DNA from: a phage
NCBI GenBank assembly: GCA_026204955.1
Contig: GCA_026204955.1_4545.1
Length of the DNA stretch: 44,324 nt
Strand: one strand, 5' to 3'
Shown here one piece after another: positions 4,874 to 43,309 of this stretch. The notes under the pieces are model-generated. The model saw only the letters and a program-made list of their open reading frames with translations. It was not told where the DNA came from and searched no databases. The translations under genes were made by a program, and so were the position numbers. Numbering within the stretch: position 1 is the stretch's first letter; the number at the start of each line of letters is the position of its first letter.

Positions 4874-5481
4874 CCACCTTTAAACTATACGGCGTCTTAG
4901 GACGTCGTTTCGGTAAAGTGCATAAGCTGGACTGCTTCACGCCGGGCGAGGGTATCACCGGCCTGTGTGTGAAGTTACCAGGCTTACAGGACTTTCTAAT
5001 GTCGGCCCACCTGGACAACATGATGTTCAAAGTGCGCAAGGGCAATCACACTCTGACCGGCTACGATGAGCTGGGCGAGTTCCACGGCAATCGCGTAGTG
5101 ACCATCGCGCCGGTTATGACTGGTGCAAAAAGCGGACTGGGCCAATTGCTGGCTGGTGTAGCAATCGTGGTGGCGTCGTTCTATACCGGCGGGCTTGCGA
5201 CTGCCGCTTTCGGAGCTTCAGCGGCTACAGCGGCCTCTATCGGCGCAGCGACGTTTTCGTTCGGGATGTCGATGGCGCTGGGTGGCGTTATGCAATTGTT
5301 ATCACCGCAACCGAAAGGATTGCAGACACGGCAGGACGTGGATAACAAGGCGTCGTACGCGTTCGGCGGACCAGTGAACACAACCGCGCAAGGCACGGCA
5401 CTTGGTGTATTATGGGGCGAGCGTGAGATCGGCGGCGCTATTATTTCCGCCGGAATCGTAACCGAGGACTTGAACGAATGA
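4864..5481 (+). CDS. tail assembly protein I-like
   Basis: 205 aa, N-terminal ubiquitin-like region then Gly/Ala-rich hydrophobic C-terminus; overlaps K-like and J-like genes as in lambda. Confidence 0.5.
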   Translation: MAMTTFKLYGVLGRRFGKVHKLDCFTPGEGITGLCVKLPGLQDFLMSAHLDNMMFKVRKGNHTLTGYDELGEFHGNRVVTIAPVMTGAKSGLGQLLAGVAIVVASFYTGGLATAAFGASAATAASIGAATFSFGMSMALGGVMQLLSPQPKGLQTRQDVDNKASYAFGGPVNTTAQGTALGVLWGEREIGGAIISAGIVTEDLNE

Positions 5482-8400: not shown

Positions 8401-8924
8401 AGTTCGGGCAGCAGTCCGCCGCTATCGAGCAGAAGATGACGTCTTCGTTTAACCATGCCGGTGGGAGCGCCACGTACAGCCTTAAGGCGGGCGTGACGTA
8501 TAACGGGACTTACTATGATGCCGGTATGCAGCTTTCCGTCGTGACGTCGGGCAACGCAGTTAAATCTCGTATTGCGTTCAAGGCCGACCAGTTCTACATT
8601 ATGCACCCGTCGAATGGGTCGCTTTCGTCCGCGTTTATCGTTGACGGCGGGCAGGTGTATATTGACACGGCGCGCGTCAAGGACGCGTCCATCAATTTCG
8701 CGCAGATCACGGACACGCTGCAATCGAATAACTTCGTTTCAGGGTCACGCGGCTGGCGTATCCAGAAAGGCGGAGCGGCGGAGTTTAACGAGGTGACGGT
8801 GCGCGGCAACTTGTTCGCGACTACTGGTAACTTCGGGTTTTCAGGCGGGACGGTGACGATCGACGCCACAGGCGTTAATGTGCCATTACCCGGCGGGGGG
8901 AGGGTGAAAGTCGGCACGTGGTAA
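5478..8924 (+). CDS. host specificity / central tail fibre protein J-like
   Basis: 1148 aa (lambda J is about 1130 aa), last gene of the M-L-K-I-J block; followed by a strong hairpin terminator. Confidence 0.75.
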   Translation: MTIIYDVTGHKGGGGKQHTPQETPDSLHSLAKIRILLALGEGEFESITSASELRQRVYLDGTPIQNADLSENFPGARVEFRPGTQHQDVIHGFSAVESEQSVGVKLENGTPWVRQINDTSLDAVRIRIGIPALYTNEDNGDLVGGRIDYKIVVYTDNADPREFRFAAVGKTMSLYERDHRIELPPNVNTGWRVEVHRITADSTSAKVVNDIQVQSITEIIDARLRYPLTALLFVEFDAKAFQNIPRVSIKCKGRKVLVPNNYDPINHTYSGDWDGTFKRAWTDNPAWHWYDICITERFGLGRRIKPQMLNRYALYQIAQRCDQLVSDGNGGQEIRFKNDMYIQSQTDAWTVLKDLAAIFAGMTWWGNQMLNIVSDQPVAAVSHTITNASVIDGRFDYASGSQKTRYSTFAVAYGNPKNHYEDAIATGQRVELVRRHKINRLDITAIGCTRESEAQRRGHWALISNQLDQQVSFKVGMEGLFFIPGSVVAIADTNISGGFETRGGRLLSDPGTRTVLNTDSEITFRPGDKFLVRTNSGNVETREIASVNGNKVTLKTALDADPIPDQPFCVDGNDIQLQKFRITDLEYDDSTSTFSVRGIEYNDSKYDAVDNGARLDPGIFTQVPDGVMKGPESVTITPSQISSQGQLITNVDIVFPPVKDAVVYEIQWRRTSLQNMEIQWGNDWVNIPRTASNGAHIPNVFSGNYQARVRAIGMGEISSPWVSSAITPIEGRLGGLNAPIITNAISGLHQILWKWNHNNAATDISYTELEVRKTGETEWKFLTNVPYPGSDYAQTSLEFGIYQQLRARVADKIGNLSDWSAPFEGQVSDKVDEYMKGLDDEFLTSEDGKHFQEAIDTMPQGIYEAMLTDAQQLFNARAEYKGIYAEITVAYNVAADAHKAVAQLETLIGTRLDDAEASIHTLQTAQSTHEQAFAQYQQTVAAKFSEQEAAIQQVQTATADVAGALAEYKTQVAAQFGQQSAAIEQKMTSSFNHAGGSATYSLKAGVTYNGTYYDAGMQLSVVTSGNAVKSRIAFKADQFYIMHPSNGSLSSAFIVDGGQVYIDTARVKDASINFAQITDTLQSNNFVSGSRGWRIQKGGAAEFNEVTVRGNLFATTGNFGFSGGTVTIDATGVNVPLPGGGRVKVGTW

Positions 8925-8928
8925 AAGC

Positions 8929-8954
8929 GAGGGGGCCGTTTGGCCCCCTTTTTT
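8929..8954. terminator. bidirectional rho-independent terminator (after J; after convergent 8953 gene)
   Basis: GAGGGGGCC-gttt-GGCCCCC followed by T6 on + strand, A-tract on the other side. Confidence 0.7.
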
Positions 8955-9918
8955 AATAGATGTTTGGGATAACAAGTAAGGGGGTTGGCACCGCGATATT
9001 TTTACCCGGCATCTGGAATTGCTGCCGTGAGTAGTTGCCGATGACGCGGTTTTTAGCGACGCGCACATTATTACCCGCCATGCGTATCCCGTTCATTCTA
9101 ACGTGGTTATAGCCTCCGTTGTTCTCAATGAGCGCGCCGGTGTATGAAAGCTGGATCAGACTATTACCAATATGCTGGTCGCCGCCTCCGATGTTAATAG
9201 TGCGGTCGTAGACAAACGGCTTGTTCACCGTCGAGAACGTGACCTGATTCTGGCTATTCGTCATGGTGATCCCGGCCCCAGGCGTTGGTGGTGTATTGTT
9301 GAATATTACCAAATCCATGTCCACAGAAGCCGCCACATCGTCGATGCCACCGTAGGACGCGTTGCGGACAATAATACTGCCGCCGTCGAAGCCTACTGAT
9401 ACGTTGCCATCGTCCCATCGGGCGAACGGGACACCGCTAACGGGCAATGCCATACTGCCGTTGACGCGCACGCGCTGTGCGTATCGGCAGGTCATTAGCT
9501 TAGACACGTTGGATATGGCGGTGAAGTCCGTCGAGTTCTCCACCAGTAAGCCCGCGTTGCGTGAACCAACCGGCAGCACTTCCATTATGACGCCAGCCCA
9601 TTGTGGTAAGCCAGAGTACGCGCCATACGCATCCTCCCCGCGCAGGGTGATACCACTATTCCCGTTGCGGGTAACAGACGTAACGTAAAACGGGTCGGGA
9701 ATTACCAGGGTCTGGTCGAATACCTCAATCACTTCTACCGGGCGAGTGAGCGCGACGACGACCTGCGACCCCTCCGTAAGCGGGGTGTTAATGGTTAGCG
9801 TCTTGTTGGACTGTGCCAGCTGGTTAAAGCTGGTGCAGTATGACGGCGCGCGGAGTCCAGCGGTTATCTCCATTACAGGCCTGCCGTCGTTATAGTCGAT
9901 AAGTATTCCAGCGCCCAT
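8953..9918 (-). CDS. hypothetical protein with beta-helix-like Asn/Gly-rich repeats
   Basis: Track ORF 8953-9927 (GTG); preferred ATG 9918 with GGGAG RBS, directly after the lipoprotein stop. Repeats such as NIGGGDQHIGNS and GGYNHVRMNGIRMAGNNVRVAKNRVIGN resemble parallel beta-helix turns. No signal peptide. Confidence 0.4.
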   Translation of the reverse strand: MGAGILIDYNDGRPVMEITAGLRAPSYCTSFNQLAQSNKTLTINTPLTEGSQVVVALTRPVEVIEVFDQTLVIPDPFYVTSVTRNGNSGITLRGEDAYGAYSGLPQWAGVIMEVLPVGSRNAGLLVENSTDFTAISNVSKLMTCRYAQRVRVNGSMALPVSGVPFARWDDGNVSVGFDGGSIIVRNASYGGIDDVAASVDMDLVIFNNTPPTPGAGITMTNSQNQVTFSTVNKPFVYDRTINIGGGDQHIGNSLIQLSYTGALIENNGGYNHVRMNGIRMAGNNVRVAKNRVIGNYSRQQFQMPGKNIAVPTPLLVIPNIY

Positions 9919-9920
9919 TA

Positions 9921-10142
9921 TTACCACTCCCGTGATTTAACTGATACTGTGCCTGAGAAGTTGCCGTCGCTATCGGATGTCAGCCCGGTGAATCGCATGT
10001 CCACATCTCCTGCCGGGACTTTTTGCCCGTCAACGTAGCGCAACATGCAGCTACCGTAAGCAACCGTAACGCAATCGCCGTTGTTGCGTTCTACGGCGCA
10101 ACCGGACAAAAGAACAGCACAAATCATAATTAAAGTTTTCAT
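9921..10142 (-). CDS. small lipoprotein (possible Cor-like superinfection exclusion protein)
   Basis: Internal start MKTLIMICAVLLSGC gives signal peptide plus lipobox (LSGC); AGGAG RBS 8 nt upstream of ATG 10142; 73 aa; transcribed opposite to the flanking tail genes. Confidence 0.5.
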   Translation of the reverse strand: MKTLIMICAVLLSGCAVERNNGDCVTVAYGSCMLRYVDGQKVPAGDVDMRFTGLTSDSDGNFSGTVSVKSREW

Positions 10143-22300: not shown

Positions 22301-23723
22301 TACTTAAGTCCTCGTCGGTAGCTTCAGACCACGCAGGGCGCGGGTCGTCGATTGGTGCTAATACCGGTTTTGCCGGTGCGCGCGTGATTTTATCACACAA
22401 CTTCGCCCACACTTTCGGCTTCTCGTCCTTCAGTACCTTCTCGGCATCCGTAGGACTGAGCAATGTTTCTTTGTACATCACGTCGCGCTTGATCCGGGCC
22501 TTCGTGAAGATCTCAATCACTTCGCTCTCGTCCGCCCACTTGCGGATTCCTTCCTTACCGGCAACCATCTTGAGGCCCAGCGATTCGCCATCACCCGCCA
22601 TTACGGCCTTGAACACCGCGGACTCGATAGCCTTGATGTGCTGGCGCATTGCGTCAAGACCTTCATAAGCCTTGCGCAGTTCCGCGGCGGTCATTGCGCC
22701 GGGGGCAGCTTCTTTCTTACCACGCTTCGCACGTCGTGCCGCTTTGCGGGCTTCGCGGGCCATATTGCGGTCGTGATTGGCGCATTCTTCCTCTGTCGCA
22801 ATACTCACGTCGTCGCCCAGGTCTTCGTCTGTTGCCGTTGGTGGGGTCACCGTGTCGATTGCAGCCTTAGCGCGGGCGCTACACTGATCCGCAAATCTGC
22901 ACCACTGACACGCATCAACGCTCGGTCGGAAGTCGGCACGGGTGAGTCCTTTCTTACCGCGGGCATACGCTTCCAGGGCGGCGACAGCACGCTTGGACGC
23001 AAACTTAGCGAATATCTCCAGGGCTTCTACCGAAATATCCCACTCCGACGCCCCGCCGCAATATGGCTGGAAGATAACCAGGCGCACGGTCGTAATGTCG
23101 TACATAGTTTTCAGCTTGCGCAGCAGGCCCAGCGCATACAACATAAGCTGTTTGTTTTCTTTCGCCTCGACCTTATGCCGCCCGGTCTTCAGGTCGCCAA
23201 CAATCAGCATGTACGTGCCGTCGGTCTTCTTCATGACCATGACCATATCGGCAGTGCCGAACGTCTTAACCCGGTTGCCGTCGATCTCGAAGCCAGAGTG
23301 TAGGACGCGGGTAAGATCGGCGCGCATCTCAAGCTGGACAAACTCCGCCACTTCGAGGAGCGGTCGCCAGTGGTCAATGTACGCGTCGCACTGTTTCACC
23401 ATATCGTCGTTGACCAGTACGCCGCCTTTCGGTGCTTTCGGGTGCGCCTTCACTGGCCCCTTACCTTCGTTCTCGACGTAGCACCCTTTGTACGTCTTAG
23501 CGGTTATCATCTTCTCCCCGGCGATAATGCGGTTTAGCACGACTTCCGATACGGTGTGCATACTCGTACCGTTAATCGCCGCTTGCCCGGATTCGTTCGG
23601 GATATCTTTTTCTACTACCAGGGCCGCGGGACACCCCATCCATTTTTTAGCACCGGATGGCCCGAGTAATGAATGTTCCGTATTACTACCGGATTGTGTT
23701 TTGCGCTTCGGTTTAATCGCCAT
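22293..23723 (-). CDS. DUF2800-like PD-(D/E)XK (Cas4-like) nuclease
   Basis: 476 aa; Cys cluster CQWCRFADQCS (C-x2-C-x5-C) as in Cas4/RecB-type Fe-S nucleases; gene order with DUF2815-like and PolA genes typical of a conserved phage replication module. Confidence 0.5.
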   Translation of the reverse strand: MAIKPKRKTQSGSNTEHSLLGPSGAKKWMGCPAALVVEKDIPNESGQAAINGTSMHTVSEVVLNRIIAGEKMITAKTYKGCYVENEGKGPVKAHPKAPKGGVLVNDDMVKQCDAYIDHWRPLLEVAEFVQLEMRADLTRVLHSGFEIDGNRVKTFGTADMVMVMKKTDGTYMLIVGDLKTGRHKVEAKENKQLMLYALGLLRKLKTMYDITTVRLVIFQPYCGGASEWDISVEALEIFAKFASKRAVAALEAYARGKKGLTRADFRPSVDACQWCRFADQCSARAKAAIDTVTPPTATDEDLGDDVSIATEEECANHDRNMAREARKAARRAKRGKKEAAPGAMTAAELRKAYEGLDAMRQHIKAIESAVFKAVMAGDGESLGLKMVAGKEGIRKWADESEVIEIFTKARIKRDVMYKETLLSPTDAEKVLKDEKPKVWAKLCDKITRAPAKPVLAPIDDPRPAWSEATDEDLSNE

Positions 23724-23911
23724 TATTCCACCCTTGAAAATTGAGCAATGTAATAATCGTGTTCAACATTGGCCCGCTTAGCGGCATTGTTCATGGTAGC
23801 CGCCAGTCCTCGAGCTTGCATCCAGCAGCAATTCCAGTTTTGATTCATAACAATTTCTGGTTGCTCGTCGCCGGTAATACGGCAACGAAATAAAACAAAG
23901 AATATAGCCAT
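23723..23911 (-). CDS. hypothetical protein
   Basis: 62-aa ORF in leftward early operon. Confidence 0.25.
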   Translation of the reverse strand: MAIFFVLFRCRITGDEQPEIVMNQNWNCCWMQARGLAATMNNAAKRANVEHDYYIAQFSRVE

Positions 23912-29806: not shown

Positions 29807-30078
29807 TATATTGGTTTGGGTTGGGGTGCGCGACACTCTTTGCTACGGTGCCGGCGCTGTTGGTATGGGTATTCCTGATTTGGCCCGCGGTGGAAGCCGC
29901 CAGCATTACCCGCATGACGTTCCTGATATACAAGCGCCGTGGCATCACGGAGCACCCGACCAGGTTGCGCATGTGGTGGCTATGGTATCGCGATATGATC
30001 GGCGGGCGAATGTTCGAGGCCGTCCGATCGGACGGGTGGGAGTGGAAAGGCGTCGGCAAGTGGTCCATTTTCGATTAA
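29791..30078 (+). CDS. small membrane protein
   Basis: 95 aa; two hydrophobic helices (GLGCATLFATVPALLVWVFLIWPAV); precedes terminator and holin gene. Confidence 0.35.
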   Translation: MLHDLIYWFGLGCATLFATVPALLVWVFLIWPAVEAASITRMTFLIYKRRGITEHPTRLRMWWLWYRDMIGGRMFEAVRSDGWEWKGVGKWSIFD

Positions 30079-30095
30079 TTATGCAAGCGTGATAT

Positions 30096-30130
30096 AGTCC
30101 CAGTGAGCTAAAACTTACTGGGACTTTTTT
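30096..30130 (+). terminator. rho-independent terminator upstream of holin gene
   Basis: AGTCCCAGT-(12-nt loop)-ACTGGGACT followed by T6. Confidence 0.6.
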
Positions 30131-30421
30131 ATGGATAAGCTAAACGAGTGGTTATTTGCCCTCGCATGTCTGGCTGGCGGCTTCGTAGGCGCACGCATTC
30201 ATGGCGAGGCTACGAAAGGGCCGCTAAACTTCGTTTTATATATCGTAGTTGGCTTCCTGTGTGCCATATTTGGTGCGCCAGCTATTGCCGAGTGGGCTGG
30301 CTTATCGGGCGAGCGCACTGTCGCCGGTTTGGGCTTCGTAACTGCAATCTTCTGGATGCCAATAGCCGCCCGGATCAGGGAGACTATTGAGTCGTTCCGA
30401 CTTCCGGGGGGCGCAAAATGA
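30131..30421 (+). CDS. holin-like membrane protein
   Basis: 96 aa, three predicted transmembrane segments, charged C-terminus; immediately upstream of endolysin. Confidence 0.45.
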   Translation: MDKLNEWLFALACLAGGFVGARIHGEATKGPLNFVLYIVVGFLCAIFGAPAIAEWAGLSGERTVAGLGFVTAIFWMPIAARIRETIESFRLPGGAK

Positions 30422-30663
30422 TTATCTCCGTCCTGTTGTTTGTTATCATAGGGGCTTCGTCCCTGTTTAACGTGTATGCGCCGTCCGTCCAGGATGGCAT
30501 TTTAGGCCGGGTGTTATATCTGCTAACGGCGATGATCTGCGTTGTCGGATTGTTGCAAACAGGAGACGTATCAGACACCACCTGGACCGCGTTAATCTGG
30601 TTGTTTGCATTGCGCACGCTGCGTAATGCTGTTTTGAATGGGGTAAAACATGCGATTCAGTGA
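30418..30663 (+). CDS. second small membrane protein (holin/antiholin candidate)
   Basis: 81 aa with 2-3 hydrophobic helices; ATGA overlap with upstream gene; overlaps endolysin start. Confidence 0.4.
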   Translation: MIISVLLFVIIGASSLFNVYAPSVQDGILGRVLYLLTAMICVVGLLQTGDVSDTTWTALIWLFALRTLRNAVLNGVKHAIQ

Positions 30664-31141
30664 CAACGGTCTACGATTTACGGCAGCATGGGAGACTTTC
30701 AGCCCAGTGCCGTATTTCGCGACTAAGAAAGAGCAGGCCCGCGGCCTGTACACCTGGGGTTATGGACATACCGGCACTAACCCGCCTCGAAGCATTACCC
30801 GCGCGGAAGCGCTGGAGCTACTTAAGCGCGATGTGGCGTATGCTGAGGACTGGGTGAACAAGTACGCACATCCGAGCATCAACCAGGCGCAATTCGACGC
30901 GCTGGTGGACCTGGTTATCAATGCCGGTCAGGGTCCGATCGTACCAGACCATATTGCCAATGACTTCGATGATGCGGTGCGATTGGGCGACTGGGCGAAG
31001 GTCCGGGCTACGCTGCCGCAGTTCCGCAAGCAAGGCGGGGAAGTGCTGAAGGGGTTAGTCCGTCGAGCAATCGGCAGGCAGGCGCTATTCGATGGTAAGC
31101 AGTGGGACGTTGCCGAGAAAATCGGTCGTAACGCAGCATAA
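30650..31141 (+). CDS. endolysin, lysozyme (GH24-like)
   Basis: 163 aa; FSDNGL...WETFSPVPY...GYGHTG, INQAQFDALVDLVINAG and LVRRAIGRQALF parallel the P22/T4-type lysozyme pattern. Confidence 0.7.
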   Translation: MRFSDNGLRFTAAWETFSPVPYFATKKEQARGLYTWGYGHTGTNPPRSITRAEALELLKRDVAYAEDWVNKYAHPSINQAQFDALVDLVINAGQGPIVPDHIANDFDDAVRLGDWAKVRATLPQFRKQGGEVLKGLVRRAIGRQALFDGKQWDVAEKIGRNAA

Positions 31142-31150
31142 GGGGATGAT

Positions 31151-31558
31151 ATGTTAAAAAGTATTCTTGATCATAATGCGGACGCGCTCGACGCGTTGGC
31201 TAAAACGGACGACGCGGAAGCGCGTCGTATCATTGCGGACACCATCAGCCATGCGGGGGTGTTTGGCGCAAGCCTTCCGGGTCCGAAACCCGAGGTAAAA
31301 GTGACAAGCGCCACGGTAACTGTAGCTCCCGAGGCAGTTACAATCGGCACCCCGGCGAAGGCTACTGCGGCGGTACAACCGGCAGGGGCGACCAATAAAT
31401 CCGGCGTGTGGGTCAGCGGGTCGCCGACCATTGCCACCGTGGATGCTTCCGGCAATATCACGGGTAAAGCACCTGGATCTGTCGATATTATTTGGGTGGC
31501 TAAGGATGGAAGCGGGGTGTCGGGCCGCAAAACGGTAACTGTGGCAAACGCAGAGTAA
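31151..31558 (+). CDS. Ig-like (Big_2-type) domain protein
   Basis: 135 aa; C-terminal about 80 aa Thr/Val/Ala-rich beta-strand pattern typical of bacterial Ig-like group 2 domains; followed by terminator. Confidence 0.4.
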   Translation: MLKSILDHNADALDALAKTDDAEARRIIADTISHAGVFGASLPGPKPEVKVTSATVTVAPEAVTIGTPAKATAAVQPAGATNKSGVWVSGSPTIATVDASGNITGKAPGSVDIIWVAKDGSGVSGRKTVTVANAE

Positions 31559-31564
31559 TGAGCA

Positions 31565-31589
31565 AGCCCGCCGTATTGGCGGGCTTTTT
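31565..31589 (+). terminator. rho-independent terminator after lysis module
   Basis: AGCCCGCC-gtattg-GCGGGCT followed by TTTTT. Confidence 0.6.
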
Positions 31590-31676
31590 ATTGTTCGACC
31601 TGCGACCAATTAATAGCCCATACTGCGGTCGCCGTGGTATATTGACCGCGGACAATCTGAATCAGGAAGATATGCA

Positions 31677-32819
31677 ATGCACCCGCAAACCAAAATCACC
31701 GACGAGCAATTGATCGCCGAGTTGCAATCCGGCACTACCGCGAAAGAGATTGCGAAGAAGTACGGCCTTTCCCTACGAAACGTCTACATGCGCAAAGCCC
31801 GCCTGTCGAAGAAAGGTATTGGTCACGGTAACGATGCCGTAATCCGTAAGCGCGTTGCCGATGGCTTCGGCGTTAAACGCGTATCCGCCCTGGTGCGCGG
31901 AAATGGCGAAGAGGTCATGTCGTGGGTTATCACTGAGCAGGACAAAGAGCGCCAGCTTGAAGCAATGCGCGCCGTTGTCGAGGGTATGAACAGCGAAATC
32001 ACACCGGCAGCACCAGTAAGCGCCCCACCAGTCCCGATCCAGGCACTTGACCTACTCAACCTGTACACAGTGTCAGACTTCCACCTGGGCATGTTGGCAT
32101 GGGGCGAGGAGACTGGCGAGGATTGGGATATGGCAATCGCCGAAGACCTGTTTTACCGCTGGTTTGTCGAAGCCTTCGCACGCGCACCGGACGCAGGCAC
32201 TGCCGTAATTAATATCCTCGGTGATATGGCGCACTTTGATAGCCTTGATGCCGTCACCCCAGCCAGCGGACACATACTGGACGCGGATACCCGCTACCAG
32301 AAACTGGTCCGCTACATGATTCGCATGGTGCGCAACGTGGTGGAACTGGCGCTGCAAAAACACCACAAAGTCAAACTGCTAATCGTCCAGGGTAATCATG
32401 ACGAGTCTGGCATGATTTGGCTGGCTGAAATGTTCAATACCCTGTATGAGAACGAGCCGCGCGTCGATGTGGACACGTCACCGGACGTATACAAGATGGT
32501 GCAGCACGGCAAGACCACGCTGTTTTTCCACCACGGGCACAAAGCACGCTTTGACGCAATCGAGACGGTTATGATTGCTAAGTTCAGGAAAGCATTTGGC
32601 GAAAGCGAGTACAGCTACGCGCATGTAGGCCACTTGCACCACCAGAAGATTGTTGAATCCCACAACATGATTGTTGAACAACACCGGACACTAGCAGCGA
32701 AAGACGCATATGCAAGCCGCGGCGGTTGGATGAGCGGTCGCAGCGCAAACGTCATCACCTATAGCGCCAACTACGGCGAAGTAGCGCGCTTAACCATTAG
32801 CCCGGAAATGTTGAAGTAA
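31677..32819 (+). CDS. HTH domain fused to calcineurin-like metallophosphoesterase (Mre11/SbcD-like or phosphatase)
   Basis: 380 aa; N-terminal HTH (TTAKEIAKKYGLSLRNVYMRKARL); phosphoesterase motifs SDFHLG (D-x-H), GDMAH (GD), QGNHDE (GNHD/E), HHGHK (GH-x-H). Confidence 0.55.
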   Translation: MHPQTKITDEQLIAELQSGTTAKEIAKKYGLSLRNVYMRKARLSKKGIGHGNDAVIRKRVADGFGVKRVSALVRGNGEEVMSWVITEQDKERQLEAMRAVVEGMNSEITPAAPVSAPPVPIQALDLLNLYTVSDFHLGMLAWGEETGEDWDMAIAEDLFYRWFVEAFARAPDAGTAVINILGDMAHFDSLDAVTPASGHILDADTRYQKLVRYMIRMVRNVVELALQKHHKVKLLIVQGNHDESGMIWLAEMFNTLYENEPRVDVDTSPDVYKMVQHGKTTLFFHHGHKARFDAIETVMIAKFRKAFGESEYSYAHVGHLHHQKIVESHNMIVEQHRTLAAKDAYASRGGWMSGRSANVITYSANYGEVARLTISPEMLK

Positions 32820-32850
32820 CGGCAGCCAGTAAGCCACCCAGCCTGCCGAT

Positions 32851-32879
32851 TTGGTGGGCTTTTTTGTGCCTGTTATAAT
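32851..32879 (+). promoter_or_regulatory. extended -10 promoter upstream of terminase genes
   Basis: TGtTATAAT (32871-32879) with -35-like TTGGTG (32851-32856) at 17-nt spacing; overlaps hairpin/T-tract after the upstream gene. Confidence 0.4.
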
Positions 32880-32949: not shown

Positions 32950-33501
32950 ATGGCAGAAATCAAAGTTAAGGGCCGACGCGCCAAACTGGACGGACGAGTA
33001 GCAGTAACCCCGCGCCGTAAACCAGGCGAGCAAACCGAGCATACCAATCTCGGACCTGAAATAGAGTACGGAAAGCGCCGTAAAGGCGGCAAATGTGGAC
33101 GCCCTACTGACTACCGATCCGTTTACTGCGACCAGCTTCGCCGCTATTTTGCCGACGCCGACGCATGGCAGGTCAACTACTCCGATAAAGGCGCTGCGCA
33201 AGTCATCCCCCGCCACAAGATGCCGACTCTCGGTCGCTTTGCTGCGGATATTGGGGTTGGCATCGCTTGCCTGTACCGCTGGGCGCGCGCACATGAGGAG
33301 TTCGCCGAGGCGATGGCTGACGCTATGGAGCTACAGAAAACTTTCCTGATGGAAGCTGGCGGCGTTACCATAGCGGCGGGATTCGCTACGTTCCTGCTTA
33401 AAGCCAACCACGGCGTCCGCGACGATATTCCGCTGGATGATGACGAAGATGATAACGGCGACGTCGTTGTGGAGCCTACCGGCAAAGGCCAGGGTGATTA
33501 A
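32950..33501 (+). CDS. terminase small subunit (putative)
   Basis: Preferred ATG 32950 within track ORF 32851-33501; 183 aa, basic N-terminus, HTH-like LGRFAADIGVGIACLYRWA, acidic C-terminus; immediately upstream of terminase large subunit. Confidence 0.5.
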   Translation: MAEIKVKGRRAKLDGRVAVTPRRKPGEQTEHTNLGPEIEYGKRRKGGKCGRPTDYRSVYCDQLRRYFADADAWQVNYSDKGAAQVIPRHKMPTLGRFAADIGVGIACLYRWARAHEEFAEAMADAMELQKTFLMEAGGVTIAAGFATFLLKANHGVRDDIPLDDDEDDNGDVVVEPTGKGQGD

Positions 33502-34896: not shown

Positions 34897-36417
34897 ATGA
34901 CCGTTAACGTTGACAACCAGCACCCGCTCTATGCGCGCATCGCGCCAGAGTGGAAAATGATCCGTGATTGTGTAGCAGGGGAGCGCGCCGTGAAGGCGTG
35001 CGGCCCTTTGTATCTGCCACATCCCGCCAGCGGGGACAATACCGACCCTAAATCGCGGGCGCGGTATAAAGCATATAAGCAACGCGCTGTATTCCTTAAC
35101 GCCACCGCCCGCACACTAAACGCGCTGTTAGGCGTTGCCTTTGCGAAACCGGTAAGTCTGGACCTTTCCGGGGCAATGGCTGACCTGATTGACGACGTAG
35201 ACGGCAGTGGTATGCCATTGCCGCAACTCCTGCGCGGTGCTATGTCGGAAGTTCTGCAATCGGGCCGCGCTGGCTTTATGGTGGACTATGACCGCCAGGC
35301 CCACTTTGATGAGCAGGGCAACGTAGTACCGCAGACAGCCGCTGAGATGGCGATGCATCGCCCGCTTATACGCCTGTATACGGCAGAGCAGATCATCAAC
35401 TGGCGGCAGACCCACGGTGTCGACACGTTAATCGTGCTTAAGGAAACGGACGAAATCAGCACTGAAGATCCGGACGACTTCGCAAACCACGAAGTAACCA
35501 TTTGGACCGAGCTTCGCATGATTGACGGTAAGGCACACGCCCGCCGCTGGTTTTACAACGCAGACACGTCCGATGTGCAGATGGACTTGCCGCGTGGATT
35601 CACCAAAACCGATCTGGTGCCGCTGGTGGATGCCGCTGGTAACGCTCTTACTCAACTGCCATTTTGCTGGTGCGGTGCGGTGGACAACAACGCAACGCCT
35701 GACGCCGCGCCGCTGGCGGATATTGCGTCCATCAACATTAAGCACTACAACGCCGAAGCGGACGTCGCCGAGATTGCGCACATCGTGGGCCAGCCTACCC
35801 TGGTGGCAACGGGCTTGACTCAATCATGGGCTGACAAGAACATGAAGGGCGGCATTGCCCTCGGTGCGACTAAGGGCGTTATCCTGGGCCAGAACATGGA
35901 CGCTAAACTGATTCAGGCCGAGGAGCGCAACTTGTCTGTAGCACTGTGTGAGCGTCGCGAATTGCAAATGGCTAAACTGGGCGCGGCCCTGGTCGAGAAG
36001 GGGACCGCACCTAAGACGGCAACCGAGGCGGCCTACGATGCGCAGACTGATAACAGTATACTGTCGCTTATTGCCGGTAACGTTGAGAAGGCTTTCAACC
36101 GTGCGCTGCAAATCGTCCAACTCTTCACCGGTGACACCGCCGACCAGCGTGTGACGCTGAATAAGTTCTACACCGAGATCACGGTTGATGCGCAGCTTAT
36201 GACCGCGATGATGTCGGGTGTGCAGACGGGTACGGTCCGCCTGGCTGATTTCATCAAGTGGATGATGGCACAGGGCGTCATCGACGACTCGCAAACCGTC
36301 GAGCAGGTGGAAGACGAATTGCGAAATCAGAATCCATTGCCTCAAATGTCCCCCGATGCGGTAGAATCTACCGAAGAAGACCCGGACAAGGTAGCGGACA
36401 ATGGCGAAGACAATTAA
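34897..36417 (+). CDS. portal protein (putative)
   Basis: 506 aa, directly downstream of terminase large subunit, acidic C-terminus; AAGGAA RBS. Position and size based. Confidence 0.55.
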   Translation: MTVNVDNQHPLYARIAPEWKMIRDCVAGERAVKACGPLYLPHPASGDNTDPKSRARYKAYKQRAVFLNATARTLNALLGVAFAKPVSLDLSGAMADLIDDVDGSGMPLPQLLRGAMSEVLQSGRAGFMVDYDRQAHFDEQGNVVPQTAAEMAMHRPLIRLYTAEQIINWRQTHGVDTLIVLKETDEISTEDPDDFANHEVTIWTELRMIDGKAHARRWFYNADTSDVQMDLPRGFTKTDLVPLVDAAGNALTQLPFCWCGAVDNNATPDAAPLADIASINIKHYNAEADVAEIAHIVGQPTLVATGLTQSWADKNMKGGIALGATKGVILGQNMDAKLIQAEERNLSVALCERRELQMAKLGAALVEKGTAPKTATEAAYDAQTDNSILSLIAGNVEKAFNRALQIVQLFTGDTADQRVTLNKFYTEITVDAQLMTAMMSGVQTGTVRLADFIKWMMAQGVIDDSQTVEQVEDELRNQNPLPQMSPDAVESTEEDPDKVADNGEDN

Positions 36418-37504
36418 TCAATATATGGCGGATCGAATGATTCGCCGTCACATCTTCACCCAGCGCCTGAGCAACGACCAGGCGCGAAGGGTGCTGGCTA
36501 TGTGGGAGAAGTTCCGGCCCGCTTTACTGGGTAAGTTGACCGAGTTACTTGATGGTAAAAAGTCCATGAGCAACAAGGCACTTACCACACTTTTAACGCA
36601 ACTCGACAAGACCGTCAAAACGGAACTGCGCACCGAGTTTAAGGCGCTGGCTGAAAGCCTTCAGGAGTTCGCCGACACCGAGGCTGATTATCTTGCCGAT
36701 ACATTAACGGCAGCGATCCAGCCCGCGGTCGCCGTACCAGCGGTTGAGGTGGTTGGCGTTGTTACCGGCGCGCAGATTGCAGCGACGGCAATGAAAAACC
36801 CGTTCCAGGGTAATACTATGATGCAATGGCCTGATTCCCTTTCCGAGTGGACCAGGACGCAGATCGGCAATCAGGTGCGCGCCGGATTCATCCAGGGAAA
36901 GCCAACGATGGAAATTATCGCGGACGTGAGGCGCGCGCTAGGCGGTCGTAGTGCGCAAGCCATCTCAAGCGTTGTTAAGTCCGCAGTCAACCACTATGCG
37001 GCGACCGCCCGCGAACTAATGGTAAAAGCAAATGACGATATTCTCGAAGGTCGCCAATGGTTATCTACATTGGACACGCATACTTCTCCCATGTGCCAGC
37101 TACGCGATCGCCTGTTTTATCCGGTTGATGTTACTCCCGATACGAAAGGGAAGCGCGGCGGGAAAGTGGTGGCTGGATCACAATATGGCGCTGGTCCGGG
37201 CAAGCTACATTATTGCTGCCGTTCGACGGAGACGTGGAAAGTCAAAGGTATGGAAGATTGGCCCAGTGGTAAGCGTCCGGCACTGAAGGCTGACGCAGGC
37301 AGATTGCTGAGTGAGCAGGTAGACGCGCAGACTGATTTCTTCTCATGGGTGCAGCGCCAGCCGCGCCATATCCTGGAGGAGTTATATGGAGTGCAACGCG
37401 CCGACCAGATTATGCGCGGCGTGAAAGTGCCGAAGATGTTTACCGATTCTGGCGAACTGATGACTATTGCACAGCTTAAAAACCGGGGGTTATGGCGTGA
37501 TTAA
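36401..37504 (+). CDS. head morphogenesis / minor head protein (MuF/SPP1 gp7-like, putative)
   Basis: 367-aa ORF overlapping portal gene end; position after portal as in SPP1-like head modules; no strong motif seen. Confidence 0.4.
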   Translation: MAKTINQYMADRMIRRHIFTQRLSNDQARRVLAMWEKFRPALLGKLTELLDGKKSMSNKALTTLLTQLDKTVKTELRTEFKALAESLQEFADTEADYLADTLTAAIQPAVAVPAVEVVGVVTGAQIAATAMKNPFQGNTMMQWPDSLSEWTRTQIGNQVRAGFIQGKPTMEIIADVRRALGGRSAQAISSVVKSAVNHYAATARELMVKANDDILEGRQWLSTLDTHTSPMCQLRDRLFYPVDVTPDTKGKRGGKVVAGSQYGAGPGKLHYCCRSTETWKVKGMEDWPSGKRPALKADAGRLLSEQVDAQTDFFSWVQRQPRHILEELYGVQRADQIMRGVKVPKMFTDSGELMTIAQLKNRGLWRD

Positions 37505-37805
37505 ATATGCAGCGATCGGACTGGTTATCGGTCTGGTGGTAGGATTCTGGCAGGGTGATTCCTACCGCGCTGCCGTTGTGGCGAGAGCAGCGCAAGAAGC
37601 GCAAGCGAAAGCCCAACGGCAGCAAACTAAGGTTGTCGAGGGGGCAGTGCAGGCAGAACAGGCCCGCGATGTGGAATACCGGACTATCACGAAAGAGGTT
37701 GTGAAATATGTTACGCGTCCTAACCGTCCTGATTGCAGTTTTGATGCTGAGCGCGTGCGGATCAAGCAAAGCGCCATTGATGCCGCTAACCGAGTCGGTC
37801 TATAG
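37497..37805 (+). CDS. i-spanin (Rz-like)
   Basis: Track ORF from TTG 37467; preferred GTG 37497 overlapping upstream stop; N-terminal TM anchor KYAAIGLVIGLVVGFW then Ala/Gln/Glu-rich coiled coil; o-spanin gene embedded in the +1 frame. Confidence 0.5.
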   Translation: MIKYAAIGLVIGLVVGFWQGDSYRAAVVARAAQEAQAKAQRQQTKVVEGAVQAEQARDVEYRTITKEVVKYVTRPNRPDCSFDAERVRIKQSAIDAANRVGL

Positions 37806-37938
37806 ACCGCCTTGCACCTTTGAGAATGCCTCGGCAGATCCAGACGAAGACTTGCTGGTCGATGTTAAGAATATGGAATGTGGGGCTAAGCTGAGGGCGC
37901 AAGTGCTGGATTTGCAGAGAATAATTCGGGGGCCGTGA
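37708..37938 (+). CDS. o-spanin (Rz1-like lipoprotein), overlapping the i-spanin gene
   Basis: 76 aa; signal peptide with lipobox LSAC, Pro-rich mature region; GAGG RBS; starts inside Rz-like ORF in another frame and extends beyond it. Confidence 0.55.
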   Translation: MLRVLTVLIAVLMLSACGSSKAPLMPLTESVYRPPCTFENASADPDEDLLVDVKNMECGAKLRAQVLDLQRIIRGP

Positions 37939-37951
37939 TGGCCCCCTTTTT
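37928..37951. terminator. bidirectional terminator after Rz1 / after convergent clamp-like gene
   Basis: GGGGGCC-gtgat-GGCCCCC followed by T5; stem overlaps Rz1 stop codon. Confidence 0.65.
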
Positions 37952-37956
37952 GTTAG

Positions 37957-38469
37957 CTACAAACGCATCGGCTTGATAACAAGGAAGGCACCGCCTTTGA
38001 AAAGCACACGTGTCGCCTTGTCTACTCCCTGAAATTCCAGTTTTAAGCTATCAAACTTACGGTCGAACAATTTAGCAATTTTGCAGGCGTCGGACAGGTA
38101 TTCCCCGGCAAACCCTATAGCCTCCACTTTAGCGCTGTCGAAAGACGTAACTCTACGCCAGTCTGGGAATCGGCCGTCTACGATCTCTACGGGTATGGTA
38201 CCGATTAATACGTCTTTACTATCAAAGAACGCAGCGGATGTGCCGTCTATGTTGCAGTATTCGAATTTAGTAGGTAAGCGGCCTTTAATTGCTACTATTT
38301 TACTTTCACCTTCGGGAACAACCGCGGACCCGCAGAACAAACGATGACCGTCGGTGGCCACGATGAATCCTTTCTCGTCGAAAAACACACCATTCAGATA
38401 GTACCGCACGTCATTAGTTGCGGCGCACATCATAGCGGCTTTAAGATCGGCATAGTTAACTTTAATCAT
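37957..38469 (-). CDS. truncated DNA polymerase III beta sliding-clamp (DnaN) homologue
   Basis: Preferred ATG 38469 (GAGGA RBS) within track ORF 37957-38601. Segments [41 protein letters not shown] and C-terminal LVIKPMRL recalled to match E. coli DnaN [42 protein letters not shown] and C-terminal VVMPMRL; only about 169 aa versus about 366 aa. Confidence 0.6.
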   Translation of the reverse strand: [170 protein letters not shown]

Positions 38470-38490
38470 TGTCATTTCCTCATGTTGGTA

Positions 38491-38514
38491 TGCAACCAAT
38501 ATATTGCAACCAAT
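38491..38514. repeat. tandem TGCAACCAAT x2 in divergent region between clamp-like and scaffold genes
   Basis: TGCAACCAAT at 38491-38500 and 38505-38514, adjacent to the RBS of the clamp-like gene. Confidence 0.45.
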
Positions 38515-38533
38515 CCACCAATGCAAGCAAATT

Positions 38534-38561
38534 TTGCGATTATTTTTATCGCTGATAATAT
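38534..38561 (+). promoter_or_regulatory. promoter for scaffold/capsid genes
   Basis: -35 TTGCGA (38534-38539), 16-nt spacer, -10 TAATAT (38556-38561). Confidence 0.35.
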
Positions 38562-38616
38562 TAGAAGCGTGAAGTCGAGCGGGTGGCCTGCTCTGCCACA
38601 ATCCCAGGGGGATAGC

Positions 38617-39318
38617 ATGAAACTTACTAAAGCAGAATATGACGCGTTGCCGGAAGGTATGAAGGCGCTTTTTGTTGCCGATGGCGACGGGTATAAATCA
38701 ACGTTCATGACCGCAGAAGAAGTACAGGCGGAAATCAAGGGTCTGAAAGACAACAACGCGAAGCTGGTGAGCGAGAAGAAAGCAGAAGCCGAACGCCGCG
38801 CCGAAGCTGAGCGCCTTGCTAAAGAGAAAGAGGAAGCCGCTGCGCGCAAAAATGGCGACCTCGAAGCGATCGACAAGTCCTGGAAAGATAAGTTTGCGAA
38901 ACACGAAGCAGACACATCGGGAAAAATCGAAGCCTACCGCAAGCAGATCCACGATCTAACCATCGGCAGCGCTGCCAAAGACCTGGCGTCGAAGCTGTTC
39001 GGTAAGAATGCGGGCATCATGCAACGCCACGTAATGGACCGCCTGACGCTGGAAGACGGCGAAGACGGCAGCTTGAAAGTGCGAGTCTTGCAGGATGGCA
39101 AACCGTCCGCGCTGACTATGGAAGAGCTGGAAAAAGAGTTCCGTAATAACGCCGATTTTGCATCCGTCCTGGCTGGCACGCCAGCCGGTGGCGCGCCTAG
39201 CAAACCGACGCAGGTTGTCGAAGATGTGAAGTCAAAAATCACTATGGGCCACAGCTTCGGTATCACTGACCTTACGAAACAGGCAGGTGAAATCATCGCT
39301 AAGATGGGCGACGACTAG
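38617..39318 (+). CDS. scaffolding protein (putative)
   Basis: Preferred ATG 38617 within track ORF 38344-39318; 233 aa, highly charged Ala/Glu/Lys-rich coiled-coil (EKKAEAERRAEAERLAKEKEEAAARK); immediately upstream of capsid gene. Confidence 0.5.
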   Translation: MKLTKAEYDALPEGMKALFVADGDGYKSTFMTAEEVQAEIKGLKDNNAKLVSEKKAEAERRAEAERLAKEKEEAAARKNGDLEAIDKSWKDKFAKHEADTSGKIEAYRKQIHDLTIGSAAKDLASKLFGKNAGIMQRHVMDRLTLEDGEDGSLKVRVLQDGKPSALTMEELEKEFRNNADFASVLAGTPAGGAPSKPTQVVEDVKSKITMGHSFGITDLTKQAGEIIAKMGDD

Positions 39319-42592: not shown

Positions 42593-43309
42593 ATGGGTTA
42601 TCAGCTTCCCAACGGGTCCAGCGTCCAGATTGGGTCCGTATTAGGCAAAGGCATCGCGGTTACGGCAGCGACTAACGTCGCCGCGTCAATCACTGACAAA
42701 ACGAAAGGTTGCATTATCACCTGCGCAACCTCTCATGGTCTGGTAGTGGGCGACGTGGTGATGTTCACTAAAACTCCGTGGGTCCGTGCGCTTAACCGCG
42801 CGTTCATCGTTGGTAAAGTGGAGACTAACTCCATTACGCTAGCGGGATTCGACACCTCGGATGAGACAAAATATCCGGCGGGCGCTTTTGCAGTTGGCAC
42901 TCCTGGCGAAGTGGTTAAGGTGTCGGGCTTTATTGACTTCCCGTACATCACTAACGTTGCCGTGTCTGGCGGGGACCAGCAGACGACTACCTTCCAGCCG
43001 TTGCAGCTTAACACCGCAATCAGCATTAACACTACGAAAAATCCGTGGGTGCAGACTTTCACCTTCACCCATGACGTGGAAGACCCGATCCGCCCAATTC
43101 TGGAAGACCTGGATGAAACACAGAAAACCACTGTGATCCAGTTCACTAACCCCGCGGCAGCAAGCGGCAAAGGTGAAATTCGTATTTACCCGGCGAAGGT
43201 ATCTTTCCAGAAGATTCCGTCCGCTGAAGTAAATAACGTGGAGACGGTGCAAGTAACTTTGACCATGCAGGCGGATATGGTCATCTACCTCAAAAGTTTG
43301 GGCGCTTAA
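42593..43309 (+). CDS. major tail protein (lambda V-like)
   Basis: 238 aa, Thr/Val/Gly-rich beta protein preceding the G/GT chaperone pair; followed by a hairpin terminator as in lambdoid V-G junctions. Confidence 0.6.
   Translation: MGYQLPNGSSVQIGSVLGKGIAVTAATNVAASITDKTKGCIITCATSHGLVVGDVVMFTKTPWVRALNRAFIVGKVETNSITLAGFDTSDETKYPAGAFAVGTPGEVVKVSGFIDFPYITNVAVSGGDQQTTTFQPLQLNTAISINTTKNPWVQTFTFTHDVEDPIRPILEDLDETQKTTVIQFTNPAAASGKGEIRIYPAKVSFQKIPSAEVNNVETVQVTLTMQADMVIYLKSLGA

Follow-up and report, generated by a model that had tools for sequence, protein, structure and literature searches.

Two overlapping open reading frames in a 44,324-nt stretch of phage DNA (the window) very probably encode a two-component spanin of the overlapped 'Jersey' family, a function that we assign by architecture and analogy. 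The window's sequence is that of a circularly permuted genome from a Dhillonvirus, an HK578/SO-1/EP23-like coliphage. A preliminary description had already proposed a spanin pair at this site, and sequence features, PHROG matches, conservation in two frames, the annotations of relatives, and a published census all agree with that identity.

Structure of the overlapping gene pair

The first gene of the pair (37497..37805, plus strand) runs from a GTG at 37497 to a TAG at 37803-37805 and encodes a protein of 102 aa, the candidate i-spanin. Residues 1-101 match the profile of phrog_2536, 'Rz-like spanin' (5.1e-34). Kyte-Doolittle analysis finds one hydrophobic segment, with window means of 1.8-2.2, at residues about 4-19 (YAAIGLVIGLVVGFW; 37506..37553, plus strand), following Lys3. 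The protein is thus a predicted type II inner-membrane protein with a single N-terminal transmembrane domain. The periplasmic domain expected of an i-spanin is mostly alpha-helical, with two linked helices and a propensity for coiled coils. A single-sequence AlphaFold2 model of low confidence (mean pLDDT 60) contains helices at residues 5-72 and 84-99 separated by a break at 73-83, and the predicted anchor falls in a helix of this model. A GGGGG Shine-Dalgarno-like run (37485..37489, plus strand) is located 7 nt 5' of the GTG. An alternative TTG start at 37467, which would give a protein of 112 aa, was ruled out because the GTG at 37497 has this conserved run and relatives are annotated with that start.

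The second gene (37708..37938, plus strand; ATG at 37708, TGA at 37936-37938) encodes a 76-aa precursor of a predicted lipoprotein with 60 aa in its mature form, the candidate o-spanin. It matches two profiles that are both labeled 'Rz-like spanin', phrog_5672 (9.2e-25, residues 32-76) and phrog_1267 (5.3e-12, residues 3-74). An AAGAGGT Shine-Dalgarno sequence (37693..37699, plus strand) lies 8-9 nt 5' of the ATG, within the i-spanin coding sequence. The lipoprotein signal peptide (MLRVLTVLIAVLMLSAC; 37708..37758, plus strand) ends in the lipobox LSAC at 37747-37758. An o-spanin is expected to have a signal peptidase II signal of the form [LVI][ASTVI][GAS]C without Asp at +2; here the order is MLRVLTVLIAVLM-LSAC-G, in which L14-S15-A16-C17 is followed by Gly18 at +2, with no Asp retention residue. 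Cys17 is the predicted lipidation site. An AlphaFold2 model of the o-spanin made without an alignment, also of low confidence (pLDDT 55), has a disordered middle and a C-terminal helix at residues 50-74. As far as these low-confidence models go, the helix-linker-helix i-spanin and this form of the o-spanin fit the way the spanin family is described (Kongari et al. 2018).

The arrangement of the two genes follows from their exact coordinates. A 98-nt segment (37708..37805, plus strand) is dual coding, specifying the i-spanin C-terminus together with the o-spanin N-terminus in the +1 frame. Since the o-spanin gene continues for 133 nt beyond the i-spanin stop, the architecture is classed as overlapped. 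Both this architecture and the combination of a transmembrane helix with a lipobox, which the preliminary description had put forward as a check on the pair, are present. In a six-frame lipoprotein scan covering 1,701 start/ORF combinations, 4 loci passed a lax signal filter, and the o-spanin locus alone has a type II membrane protein partner upstream. The lipobox loci at 23527-23781 (plus strand) and 42733-43068 (minus strand) were judged to be chance occurrences, being antisense to or inside long genes.

Spanins are expected to offer one or more periplasmic cysteines through which homotypic intermolecular disulfide bonds can form (Kongari et al. 2018). Both proteins have candidates: Cys80 of the i-spanin (37734-37736), and Cys36 (37813-37815) and Cys58 (37879-37881) of the o-spanin. 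We examined the conservation of these features in 12 sequences, comprising this genome and 11 Dhillonvirus relatives that are 86-98% identical. The loci were taken from annotated phage records because an IMG/VR scan with the o-spanin gave few loci (five, one of which, L010, was a spurious tape-measure-like match). Both ORFs, their starts and ribosome-binding sites, the lipobox cysteine, and all periplasmic cysteines are intact in the 11 relatives. Across the 12 sequences, the GGGGG run is kept, the AAGAGGT sequence and the three periplasmic cysteines are invariant, and the lipobox reads [LM]SAC with an invariant cysteine.

Position and expression of the spanin genes

As first described, the pair sits between a head morphogenesis gene and a clamp-like gene. 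The former (36401..37504, plus strand; phrog_241, 4.5e-117), which encodes a minor capsid protein similar to SPP1 gp7/Mu F, lies directly 5' of the i-spanin gene and shares its final 8 nt with the i-spanin start. The clamp-like gene (37957-38475, minus strand) is the 3' neighbor. On this side the pair adjoins a moron slot that is variable and lies on the opposite strand.

The remaining lysis genes are found elsewhere. Two holin genes, each coding for hydrophobic segments, occupy 30131..30421 (plus strand, 96 aa; phrog_2359, 9.6e-32) and 30418..30663 (plus strand, 81 aa; phrog_2508, 5.7e-27). The endolysin gene follows at 30650..31141 (plus strand) and encodes a 163-aa lysozyme (PF00959, 5.5e-21; phrog_7). 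A hydropathy scan of the endolysin showed no TM-like or N-terminal hydrophobic segment, so it is a soluble enzyme and not of the SAR type. From its stop to the i-spanin start we measured 6,355 nt, with six genes between, which agrees with the distance of about 6 kb given previously. Adjacency to the holin-endolysin cassette is a usual but not obligatory trait of spanin genes, and the pair lacks it. Distance from the endolysin does not exclude a spanin, because T4, in which the spanin genes are unlinked from holin and endolysin, is an accepted exception (Kongari et al. 2018). Pfam and PHROG searches of the endolysin's neighbors yielded no competing spanin candidate. A second spanin or u-spanin beside the endolysin was ruled out, as the next gene (31151-31558) encodes a soluble Ig-domain protein without a TM-like segment. 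Every Dhillonvirus genome that we examined, Jerseyvirus, and a Kagunavirus-like phage likewise have the spanins separated from the holin-holin-endolysin genes. The split layout is the norm for these phages and no peculiarity of this genome.

As far as consensus matches go, different transcription units are suggested for the holin-endolysin genes and for those from terS to the spanins. Directly 5' of holin 1, an extended -10-like element (TGATATAGT) overlaps a terminator-like hairpin (30090..30125, plus strand), and over the 101-nt region three relatives show 100% identity. One terminator-like hairpin follows the Ig-domain gene (31564..31586, plus strand). Another, at 32840-32860, precedes the extended -10 TGTTATAAT at 32871-32879; this element (32840..32879, plus strand) is conserved in three loci (L003, L006, and L007). 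The TGTTATAAT motif, 71 nt 5' of the terS ATG at 32950, is the only perfect extended -10 in the window. Together with extended -10-like motifs at 30090 and 31635, it is conserved in relatives. The terS-to-spanin unit is closed by a GC-rich terminator-like hairpin with a T-run (37928..37951, plus strand; -20.4 kcal/mol, z = -4.1), which shares sequence with the final o-spanin codons, is flanked by convergent genes, and is also conserved in relatives. A sigma-70 consensus scan of the window found 5 sites, fewer than the 10 in shuffled sequence; no site preceded the spanins. The extended -10 pattern occurs 26 times window-wide against 21 expected, which is no enrichment. Because the consensus motifs are not enriched, the promoter assignments are leads based on position and conservation only.

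The terminase-portal-head operon appears to end with the two spanin genes, which in our proposal would be the final two cistrons of a terS-terL-portal-head morphogenesis unit. The overlap of the i-spanin start with the head morphogenesis stop suggests translational coupling of the i-spanin to that upstream stop, and the o-spanin would be translated from its own internal ribosome-binding site.

We model the action of the two proteins on the lambda Rz/Rz1 paradigm. The N-terminal anchor would fix the i-spanin in the inner membrane and leave a domain of ~80 aa, mostly helical, in the periplasm. The two spanins may join via their C-terminal regions into disulfide-stabilized complexes that cross the periplasm through the peptidoglycan mesh. 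In the spanin model, such complexes accumulate early and are restrained by intact peptidoglycan until endolysin acts (Kongari et al. 2018). After the holins permeabilize the inner membrane, the soluble endolysin would destroy the peptidoglycan. The freed complexes could then move and change shape, fusing or disrupting both membranes and releasing the progeny.

The preliminary description had taken the split cassette to imply that the final lysis step has a transcriptional control of its own. That is only partly borne out. The existence of separate units is suggested by the conserved hairpins and extended -10-like motifs, but in the established model intact peptidoglycan gates the spanins (Kongari et al. 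2018), and timing by transcription is not needed. The separate unit might still be a regulatory device that times or doses the last lysis step by transcription, a reading compatible with the spanin identity of both genes. The two hairpins between the gene sets (31564-31586 and 32840-32860), the conserved extended -10-like motifs, one of them perfect, and the overlap of the i-spanin start with the upstream stop are all in keeping with such a device. We nevertheless consider it improbable. The motifs are consensus matches to patterns that are not enriched in the window. The promoter-like elements of the two units are similar and give no hint of different timing. The established model gates spanins post-translationally by peptidoglycan integrity (Kongari et al. 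2018), and the unlinked T4 spanin genes work without special control. Moreover, in Jerseyvirus and a Kagunavirus-like phage the pair is uncoupled from the head morphogenesis gene, yet it occupies the same slot.

Similarly doubtful, in our view, is a functional instead of a historical reason for the placement, by which spanin dosage would be tied to packaging and head gene expression such that the capacity to disrupt the outer membrane arises only once assembly is under way. The slot inside the head gene block is common to Dhillonvirus, Jerseyvirus, Kagunavirus, and ZX4-like phages. Historically, the whole lysis cassette could once have been in this slot, as it is in Klebsiella phage ZX4, with the holin and endolysin genes later moving to the end of the early/middle region.

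Relatives and known spanin systems

The pair and its position are already catalogued and are shared by hundreds of sequenced Dhillonvirus and Guernseyvirinae phages; a tblastn search with the o-spanin matched 642 phage records. The proteins annotated as Rz-like spanin or as i-/o-spanin in SO-1, EP23, and the BASEL phages are 93-98% identical to the proteins described here. The same genes hold the same position as SO-1 gp05/gp06, EP23 p05/p06, and TheodorHerzl gp05/gp06 (Sodalis, Shigella, and BASEL phages), and the i-spanin homologues of SO-1 and TheodorHerzl are labeled as spanins. In these relatives, as here, the slot follows the head morphogenesis gene, and a minus-strand moron and the scaffold gene come next. 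Across 560 nt around the pair, DNA identity is 86-98%, with the same GTG start, lipobox, and cysteines; for the spanin region, identity is 93% to SO-1 and 86-87% to EP23 and JL1. The differences are only allelic. The C-terminal tail of the i-spanin has two forms, giving 102 aa here and in SO-1 and 109 aa in TheodorHerzl, EP23, and JL1; in the longer form, o-spanin codons 32-33 create no TAG in the i-spanin frame.

The description has little value beyond correct annotation. In many GenBank records of these phages only one member of the pair is annotated, or the i- and o-spanin labels are exchanged, and a clear account of the starts, frames, and lipobox helps to correct them. When related phages are searched for spanins, the place to look is downstream of the head morphogenesis gene and not beside the endolysin. 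Complementation of lambda Rz/Rz1 would validate a large annotation group.

EP23, HK578, JL1, SSL-2009a, and SO-1 are members of the Jersey family of overlapped i-/o-spanins, which was grouped by BLASTCLUST at a length coverage of 0.4 and a score coverage of 40 (Kongari et al. 2018). The family has two constant o-spanin cysteines, a conserved C-terminal helix, and a variable extreme i-spanin C-terminus (Kongari et al. 2018). Judged by sequence similarity and the o-spanin cysteines, the pair belongs to this family, in its EP23-to-SO-1 subfamily; the predicted helix comes from a low-confidence model. Against SETP13, tblastn aligned the i-spanin at 48% identity over 51% of its length and the o-spanin at 43.6% over 97%. 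For the Jersey family of Jerseyvirus and Kagunavirus phages, such as SETP13, Jersey, and K1G, tblastn gives 48% identity for half of the i-spanin and 36-46% for almost all of the o-spanin. The motifs in common are EV[VI]KY[VI]..P.R..C.F..ERV in the i-spanin and PPC...SDADEDL.VDV.N.EC in the o-spanin. The o-spanin homologues from SETP13, Bas71, RP180, and ZX4 likewise have Cys36 and Cys58. In Jerseyvirus SeF1, Gp_009 and Gp_010 belong to the same two PHROGs, phrog_2536 and phrog_5672 (PMC9409062). The Jersey family also shares the overlapped architecture, the slot between head morphogenesis and scaffold genes, and a holin-holin-endolysin set upstream of terminase. It differs in the length of the i-spanin, which in Dhillonvirus has 102-109 aa and a shorter linker, compared to 128 aa. 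Some members have the unusual lipobox LNGC instead of the LSAC found here. The spanins are set apart from the head morphogenesis gene by other genes in Jerseyvirus and the Kagunavirus-like phage, where the start/stop overlap is thus absent.

Like lambda Rz/Rz1, the prototype of two-component spanins, the pair combines a predicted type II inner-membrane protein with a predicted +1-frame outer-membrane lipoprotein encoded by the same DNA, both with periplasmic cysteines, and the mode of action is presumed to be alike (Kongari et al. 2018). There is no detectable sequence similarity, as seen in the lack of a match to the Pfam Rz family. Whereas lambda Rz1 is fully embedded in Rz, the o-spanin here is overlapped. 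Rz/Rz1 come last in the S-R-Rz lysis cassette of lambda, and the present pair is 6.4 kb away from its partners. The o-spanin is also longer (60 aa mature), with a C-terminal helix predicted at low confidence, than the short, proline-rich, and unstructured lambda Rz1. The spanin genes of P2 are likewise part of a lysis cassette. In P2 LysB/LysC, the prototype for overlapped spanin genes, as here, the o-spanin gene begins within the i-spanin gene and runs beyond it, but the proteins fall in a different sequence family in the census (Kongari et al. 2018). The T4 pair PseT.3/PseT.2 resembles ours in having an o-spanin with a predicted C-terminal helix; it differs in its separated architecture and its unrelated sequence family, and in that T4 is a myovirus whose lysis genes are dispersed.

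Klebsiella phage ZX4 encodes distant homologues of both spanins in its gp10-gp12 cassette (BLASTP 1e-15 and 2e-7), overlapped and with the lipobox ISGC, although its o-spanin is unannotated in the record. That pair also lies between head morphogenesis and coat genes. The difference is that the ZX4 endolysin and holin genes are immediately upstream, forming a contiguous cassette.

A Pfam search gave no family match for either spanin, and a search of solved structures returned only chance-level matches for both (E of at least 0.04). In the literature that we searched, these spanins appear in lists, with no paper on the split arrangement and no experimental test of any member of the Jersey-type family.

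Alternative functions and selection on both frames

Phage lipoproteins such as Cor and Llp act in exclusion, and the two genes might likewise be an envelope-modifying moron in the head block, unrelated to lysis, in which a superinfection-exclusion or receptor-masking lipoprotein works with a membrane partner. The distance from the lysis genes, the adjacent opposite-strand moron slot, and the lack of any experiment tying the family to lysis would fit such a role, which we regard as very unlikely. The overlapped i/o architecture and conserved periplasmic cysteines are hallmarks of spanins, the ZX4 homologues lie within an endolysin-holin-spanin cassette, and, unlike a moron, the pair is in every relative examined. 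A better exclusion candidate is also present in the genome at 9921-10142 (minus strand), a PF24052 lipoprotein that weakly matches Cor. A Cor/Llp-type identity for 37708-37938 itself was ruled out, as it has no such Pfam or PHROG match. The ORF at 9921-10142 matches PF24052 at 2e-21 and, weakly, the Cor profile phrog_1119; it lies beside a gene for a DUF6453 membrane protein, right after the tail tip gene.

The pattern of substitution points to purifying selection on each spanin gene in its own frame. Variable sites in the o-spanin-only segment number 27/44 at third positions and 12/86 at first and second positions combined (Fisher p = 5e-8); the corresponding values for the i-spanin-only segment are 33/68 and 20/135 (p = 5e-7). 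That one or both ORFs are chance frames, with the +1 ORF an artifact of overprinting, is scarcely credible: short ORFs are common, many GenBank relatives annotate only one of the two, and neither has a Pfam match, but the idea is already effectively refuted by this third-position bias in both frames, by the intact ORFs, starts, and ribosome-binding sites in the 12 sequences, and by Jerseyvirus/Kagunavirus homologues that retain the membrane anchor and lipobox at 35-48% protein identity. Within the overlap, the proportion of variable i-frame third positions drops from the 33/68 of the i-spanin-only segment to 9/33, a decrease that is suggestive only (p = 0.053).

Anatomy and coding evidence

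The preliminary description placed an Rz/Rz1-like pair at 37497-37938, and an ORF check recovers exactly these coordinates. The putative i-spanin ORF runs on the plus strand from a GTG at 37497 to a TAG at 37803-37805 (102 aa). The head morphogenesis gene (36401-37504, +; phrog_241, 4.5e-117) ends 8 nt into it, and a GGGGG run lies 7 nt 5' of the GTG. The product has a single hydrophobic segment at residues ~4-19, preceded by Lys3, and is charged and Ala/Gln-rich outside it. The o-spanin ORF, with AAGAGGT 8-9 nt 5' of its start, extends from ATG 37708 to TGA 37936-37938 (+, 76 aa) in the +1 frame relative to the i-spanin. The two share 98 nt and the o-spanin continues 133 nt past the i-spanin end, which is the 'overlapped' architecture originally claimed.

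The LSAC lipobox reported for the 37708 ORF is also present. The N-terminus, MLRVLTVLIAVLMLSAC-G, starts with positive charge, followed by a hydrophobic core, the lipobox and, at +2, Gly. By the standard E. coli lipoprotein sorting rule, this signal predicts an outer-membrane lipoprotein. Low-confidence, single-sequence AlphaFold models give the i-spanin a helix at 5-72, a break at 73-83 and a second helix at 84-99, and the o-spanin a signal helix and a helix at 50-74 with disorder between them. Of the defining spanin features checked in silico, the N-terminal anchor, lipobox, gene overlap and periplasmic cysteines were found; adjacency to the lysis cassette, which is not obligatory, was not. 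By analogy with known systems, the pair is very probably a functional two-component spanin; an envelope function outside lysis is a distinctly improbable alternative.

We aligned the spanin region of the window with 11 other Dhillonvirus sequences (86-98% identical). The lipobox, as [LM]SAC, and the cysteines (i-spanin Cys80, o-spanin Cys36 and Cys58) are kept in 12/12. That the ORFs arose by chance is hardly conceivable, since both are open in all 12 sequences with their GTG and ATG starts and ribosome-binding sites kept, and each shows third-position bias in its own frame: variable sites are 33/68 at third versus 20/135 at first and second positions in the i-spanin-only segment (p = 5e-7), and 27/44 versus 12/86 in the o-spanin-only segment (p = 5e-8). 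Within the overlap, i-frame third positions are less variable (9/33), a suggestive difference (p = 0.053) that fits double coding. The i-spanin occurs as 102-aa and 109-aa alleles, set by o-spanin codons 32-33 (window 37801-37806). TAT AGA (Tyr-Arg) creates the i-frame TAG; with the Leu-Arg allele the stop is lost and the i-spanin is seven residues longer.

A six-frame scan of the window (1,701 start/ORF combinations, lax lipoprotein filter) passed four loci: two lie within long genes or antisense to them, one is a separate phage lipoprotein and the fourth is the o-spanin ORF, the only one with a type II membrane protein upstream. The spanin ORF pair is more than chance. The separate lipoprotein gene, 9921-10142 (-), encodes 73 aa (MKTLIMICAVLLSGC...; PF24052 'Phage lipoprotein family', 2e-21; phrog_4281) with a weak match to Cor superinfection exclusion. 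It adjoins a DUF6453 membrane protein gene (8953-9927, -; phrog_1265) and comes right behind the J-like tail tip gene (5478-8924), ahead of the gene for the lateral tail fibre. The two are probably a receptor-blocking or superinfection-exclusion pair rather than spanins.

Family membership

Megablast with window 36400-38700 and 20000-44324 matched ~160-200 phage records, nearly all Escherichia/Shigella siphophages of the genus Dhillonvirus at 87-95% identity. They include SO-1, EP23, JL1, HK578-like phages and the BASEL phages TheodorHerzl and GeorgBuechner. The pair matches PHROG 'Rz-like spanin' families (phrog_2536, 5.1e-34; phrog_5672, 9.2e-25; phrog_1267, 5.3e-12), and Pfam and PDB searches with both spanins gave no match. 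By tblastn, 612 phage records contain the i-spanin and 642 the o-spanin, Jerseyvirus and Kagunavirus among them at 35-48% identity; in extracted homologues the membrane anchor and the cysteines persist, as does the overlapping lipoprotein ORF.

RefSeq labels the SO-1 and EP23 homologues Rz-like spanins, and BASEL genomes, annotated with the SpaninDataBase tool (PMC8594841), label theirs i-spanin and o-spanin. EP23, HK578, JL1, SSL-2009a and SO-1 were assigned to the 'Jersey' overlapped i-spanin family and the matching o-spanin family (Kongari et al. 2018, PMC6139136). The EP23-to-SO-1 i-spanins were described there as a shorter subfamily, built of two helices with a short linker and variable at the extreme C-terminus; in the o-spanins, two cysteines were described as constant and the second helix as conserved (PMC6139136). 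Our results agree with that description, and judged by sequence, architecture and cysteine pattern, the pair is a Jersey family member. Because near-identical genes are annotated and catalogued, the pair is already known; the literature searched yielded no experimental test of Jersey-family spanins. Among GenBank relatives, JL1 and Psq-1 lack an annotated o-spanin and Pandora71 and bob an annotated i-spanin; in the Salmonella phage ABTNLsp11241 record the two labels are exchanged and the o-spanin is truncated.

The split lysis layout

The spanins had been placed about 6 kb from the holin-endolysin genes, and the distance from endolysin stop to i-spanin start is 6,355 nt. Holin 1 (30131-30421, +; phrog_2359), holin 2 (30418-30663, +; phrog_2508) and the endolysin (30650-31141, +; PF00959, 5.5e-21) are the other lysis genes. 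The endolysin lacks an N-terminal hydrophobic segment and is thus predicted to be a soluble, holin-dependent enzyme.

This split is the rule in the lineage, not a peculiarity of the window. Once circularly permuted, TheodorHerzl has the window's gene order: terS, terL, portal, minor capsid/head morphogenesis, i-spanin, o-spanin, a minus-strand gene, scaffold and major capsid, followed by tail genes, replication genes, holin, holin and endolysin (spanins gp05-06; holin-holin-endolysin gp60-62). Jerseyvirus SETP13 carries its spanins (gp08-09) between head morphogenesis/decoration and scaffold, with holin-holin-(HNH)-endolysin (gp59-62) upstream of terminase. Kagunavirus-like phage Bas71, Kagunavirus RP180 and Jerseyvirus ABTNLsp11241 use the same slot. 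The split has been listed without comment for Jerseyvirus SeF1 (spanins Gp_009/010 versus lysis Gp_063-065, same four PHROGs; PMC9409062) and Dhillonvirus vB_EcoS_P78 (ORFs 31-33 versus 40; PMC12677095).

The exception is Klebsiella phage ZX4, in which distant spanin homologues (BLASTP E-values 1e-15 and 2e-7) directly follow endolysin and holin. By context, this cassette ties Jersey-type spanins to lysis genes, and its location between head morphogenesis and coat genes suggests that the spanins have long occupied the head block. The ZX4 o-spanin is unannotated (81 aa, lipobox ISGC; L017, the ZX4 locus, 3068-3313 = NC_054654.1 6721-6966) and overlaps the annotated Rz-like spanin gp12.

On the model of lambda Rz/Rz1, the i-spanin would have its anchor in the inner membrane and the o-spanin, by its lipid, in the outer one. 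The two would bind through their C-terminal parts, with disulfide bonds producing homodimers, and the complexes would accumulate threaded through the peptidoglycan. Holin triggering and peptidoglycan removal by the soluble endolysin would release them to fuse or disrupt both membranes. The last step would be gated by peptidoglycan integrity, and the spanin genes would need only expression that is late enough and strong enough; such gating would let them tolerate being unlinked from holin and endolysin. Lambda Rz/Rz1 share this presumed mode of action but no detectable sequence similarity with the pair, P2 LysB/LysC share its gene architecture, and T4 PseT.3/PseT.2 share its separation from other lysis genes, T4 spanin genes being unlinked from holin and endolysin (Kongari et al. 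2018, PMC6139136). That the placement itself has a functional meaning, which would be compatible with the pair acting as spanins, is unlikely.

Likely transcription units and neighbouring genes

Terminator-like plus-strand hairpins with T-runs lie just 5' of holin 1 (30096-30125), 3' of the Ig-domain gene that follows the endolysin (31564-31586), 5' of terS (32840-32860) and over the o-spanin stop, between convergent genes (37928-37946; RNA fold -20.4 kcal/mol, z = -4.1). Extended -10-like motifs accompany the first three: TGATATAGT at 30090, TGGTATATT at 31635 and TGTTATAAT at 32871, 71 nt before terS and the sole perfect extended -10 in the window. Across the window, sigma-70 sites are fewer than expected by chance, and extended -10 matches show no enrichment. 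Relatives conserve hairpins and motifs at all three boundaries (30040-30140, 31564-31643, 32840-32879). Three relatives whose spanin regions share 87-98% identity with that of the window match it at 100% over the 101 nt preceding holin 1. From these consensus matches at gene boundaries we infer three likely units: holin-holin-endolysin-Ig; a lone 380-aa metallophosphatase/exonuclease-like gene; and terS-terL-portal-head morphogenesis-i-spanin-o-spanin. The preliminary description took the split to imply separate transcriptional control of the final lysis step. Separate units are plausible, but separate timing exceeds the evidence, since a last step gated by peptidoglycan would not need it.

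The Ig-like gene (31151-31558, +; 135 aa, Big_2 8.5e-12) directly follows the endolysin and, lying before hairpin 31564-31586, would be co-transcribed with the lysis genes. Its product resembles Ig-domain structural/decoration proteins (phrog_215), and no gene is annotated there in TheodorHerzl.

The convergent 'clamp-like' gene 3' of the o-spanin (37957-38475, -) carries conflicting labels: phrog_3007 RusA-like Holliday junction resolvase (2.9e-55), DNA polymerase III beta subunit in GenBank records, and a Pfam DNA_pol3_beta_2 match to residues 15-59 only, below the curated cut-off (23.9 versus 27 bits). Between o-spanin and scaffold lies a minus-strand moron site of variable content (window 37939-38620; L011-L016, loci from annotated records). 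The clamp-like gene occupies it in the window, SO-1 and TheodorHerzl, and a 765-nt Nmad5-domain gene does so instead in Pandora71, bob, GeorgBuechner and Psq-1; both genes are present in EP23 and two small ORFs in JL1.

The 380-aa gene that separates terS from the lysis unit (31677-32819, +) has terminator-like hairpins on both sides. It matches phrog_704 'DNA repair exonuclease' (4.8e-161) and, weakly, calcineurin-like phosphoesterases; by eye, the N-terminus of its product resembles a helix-turn-helix. This is an odd location for a DNA metabolism gene.
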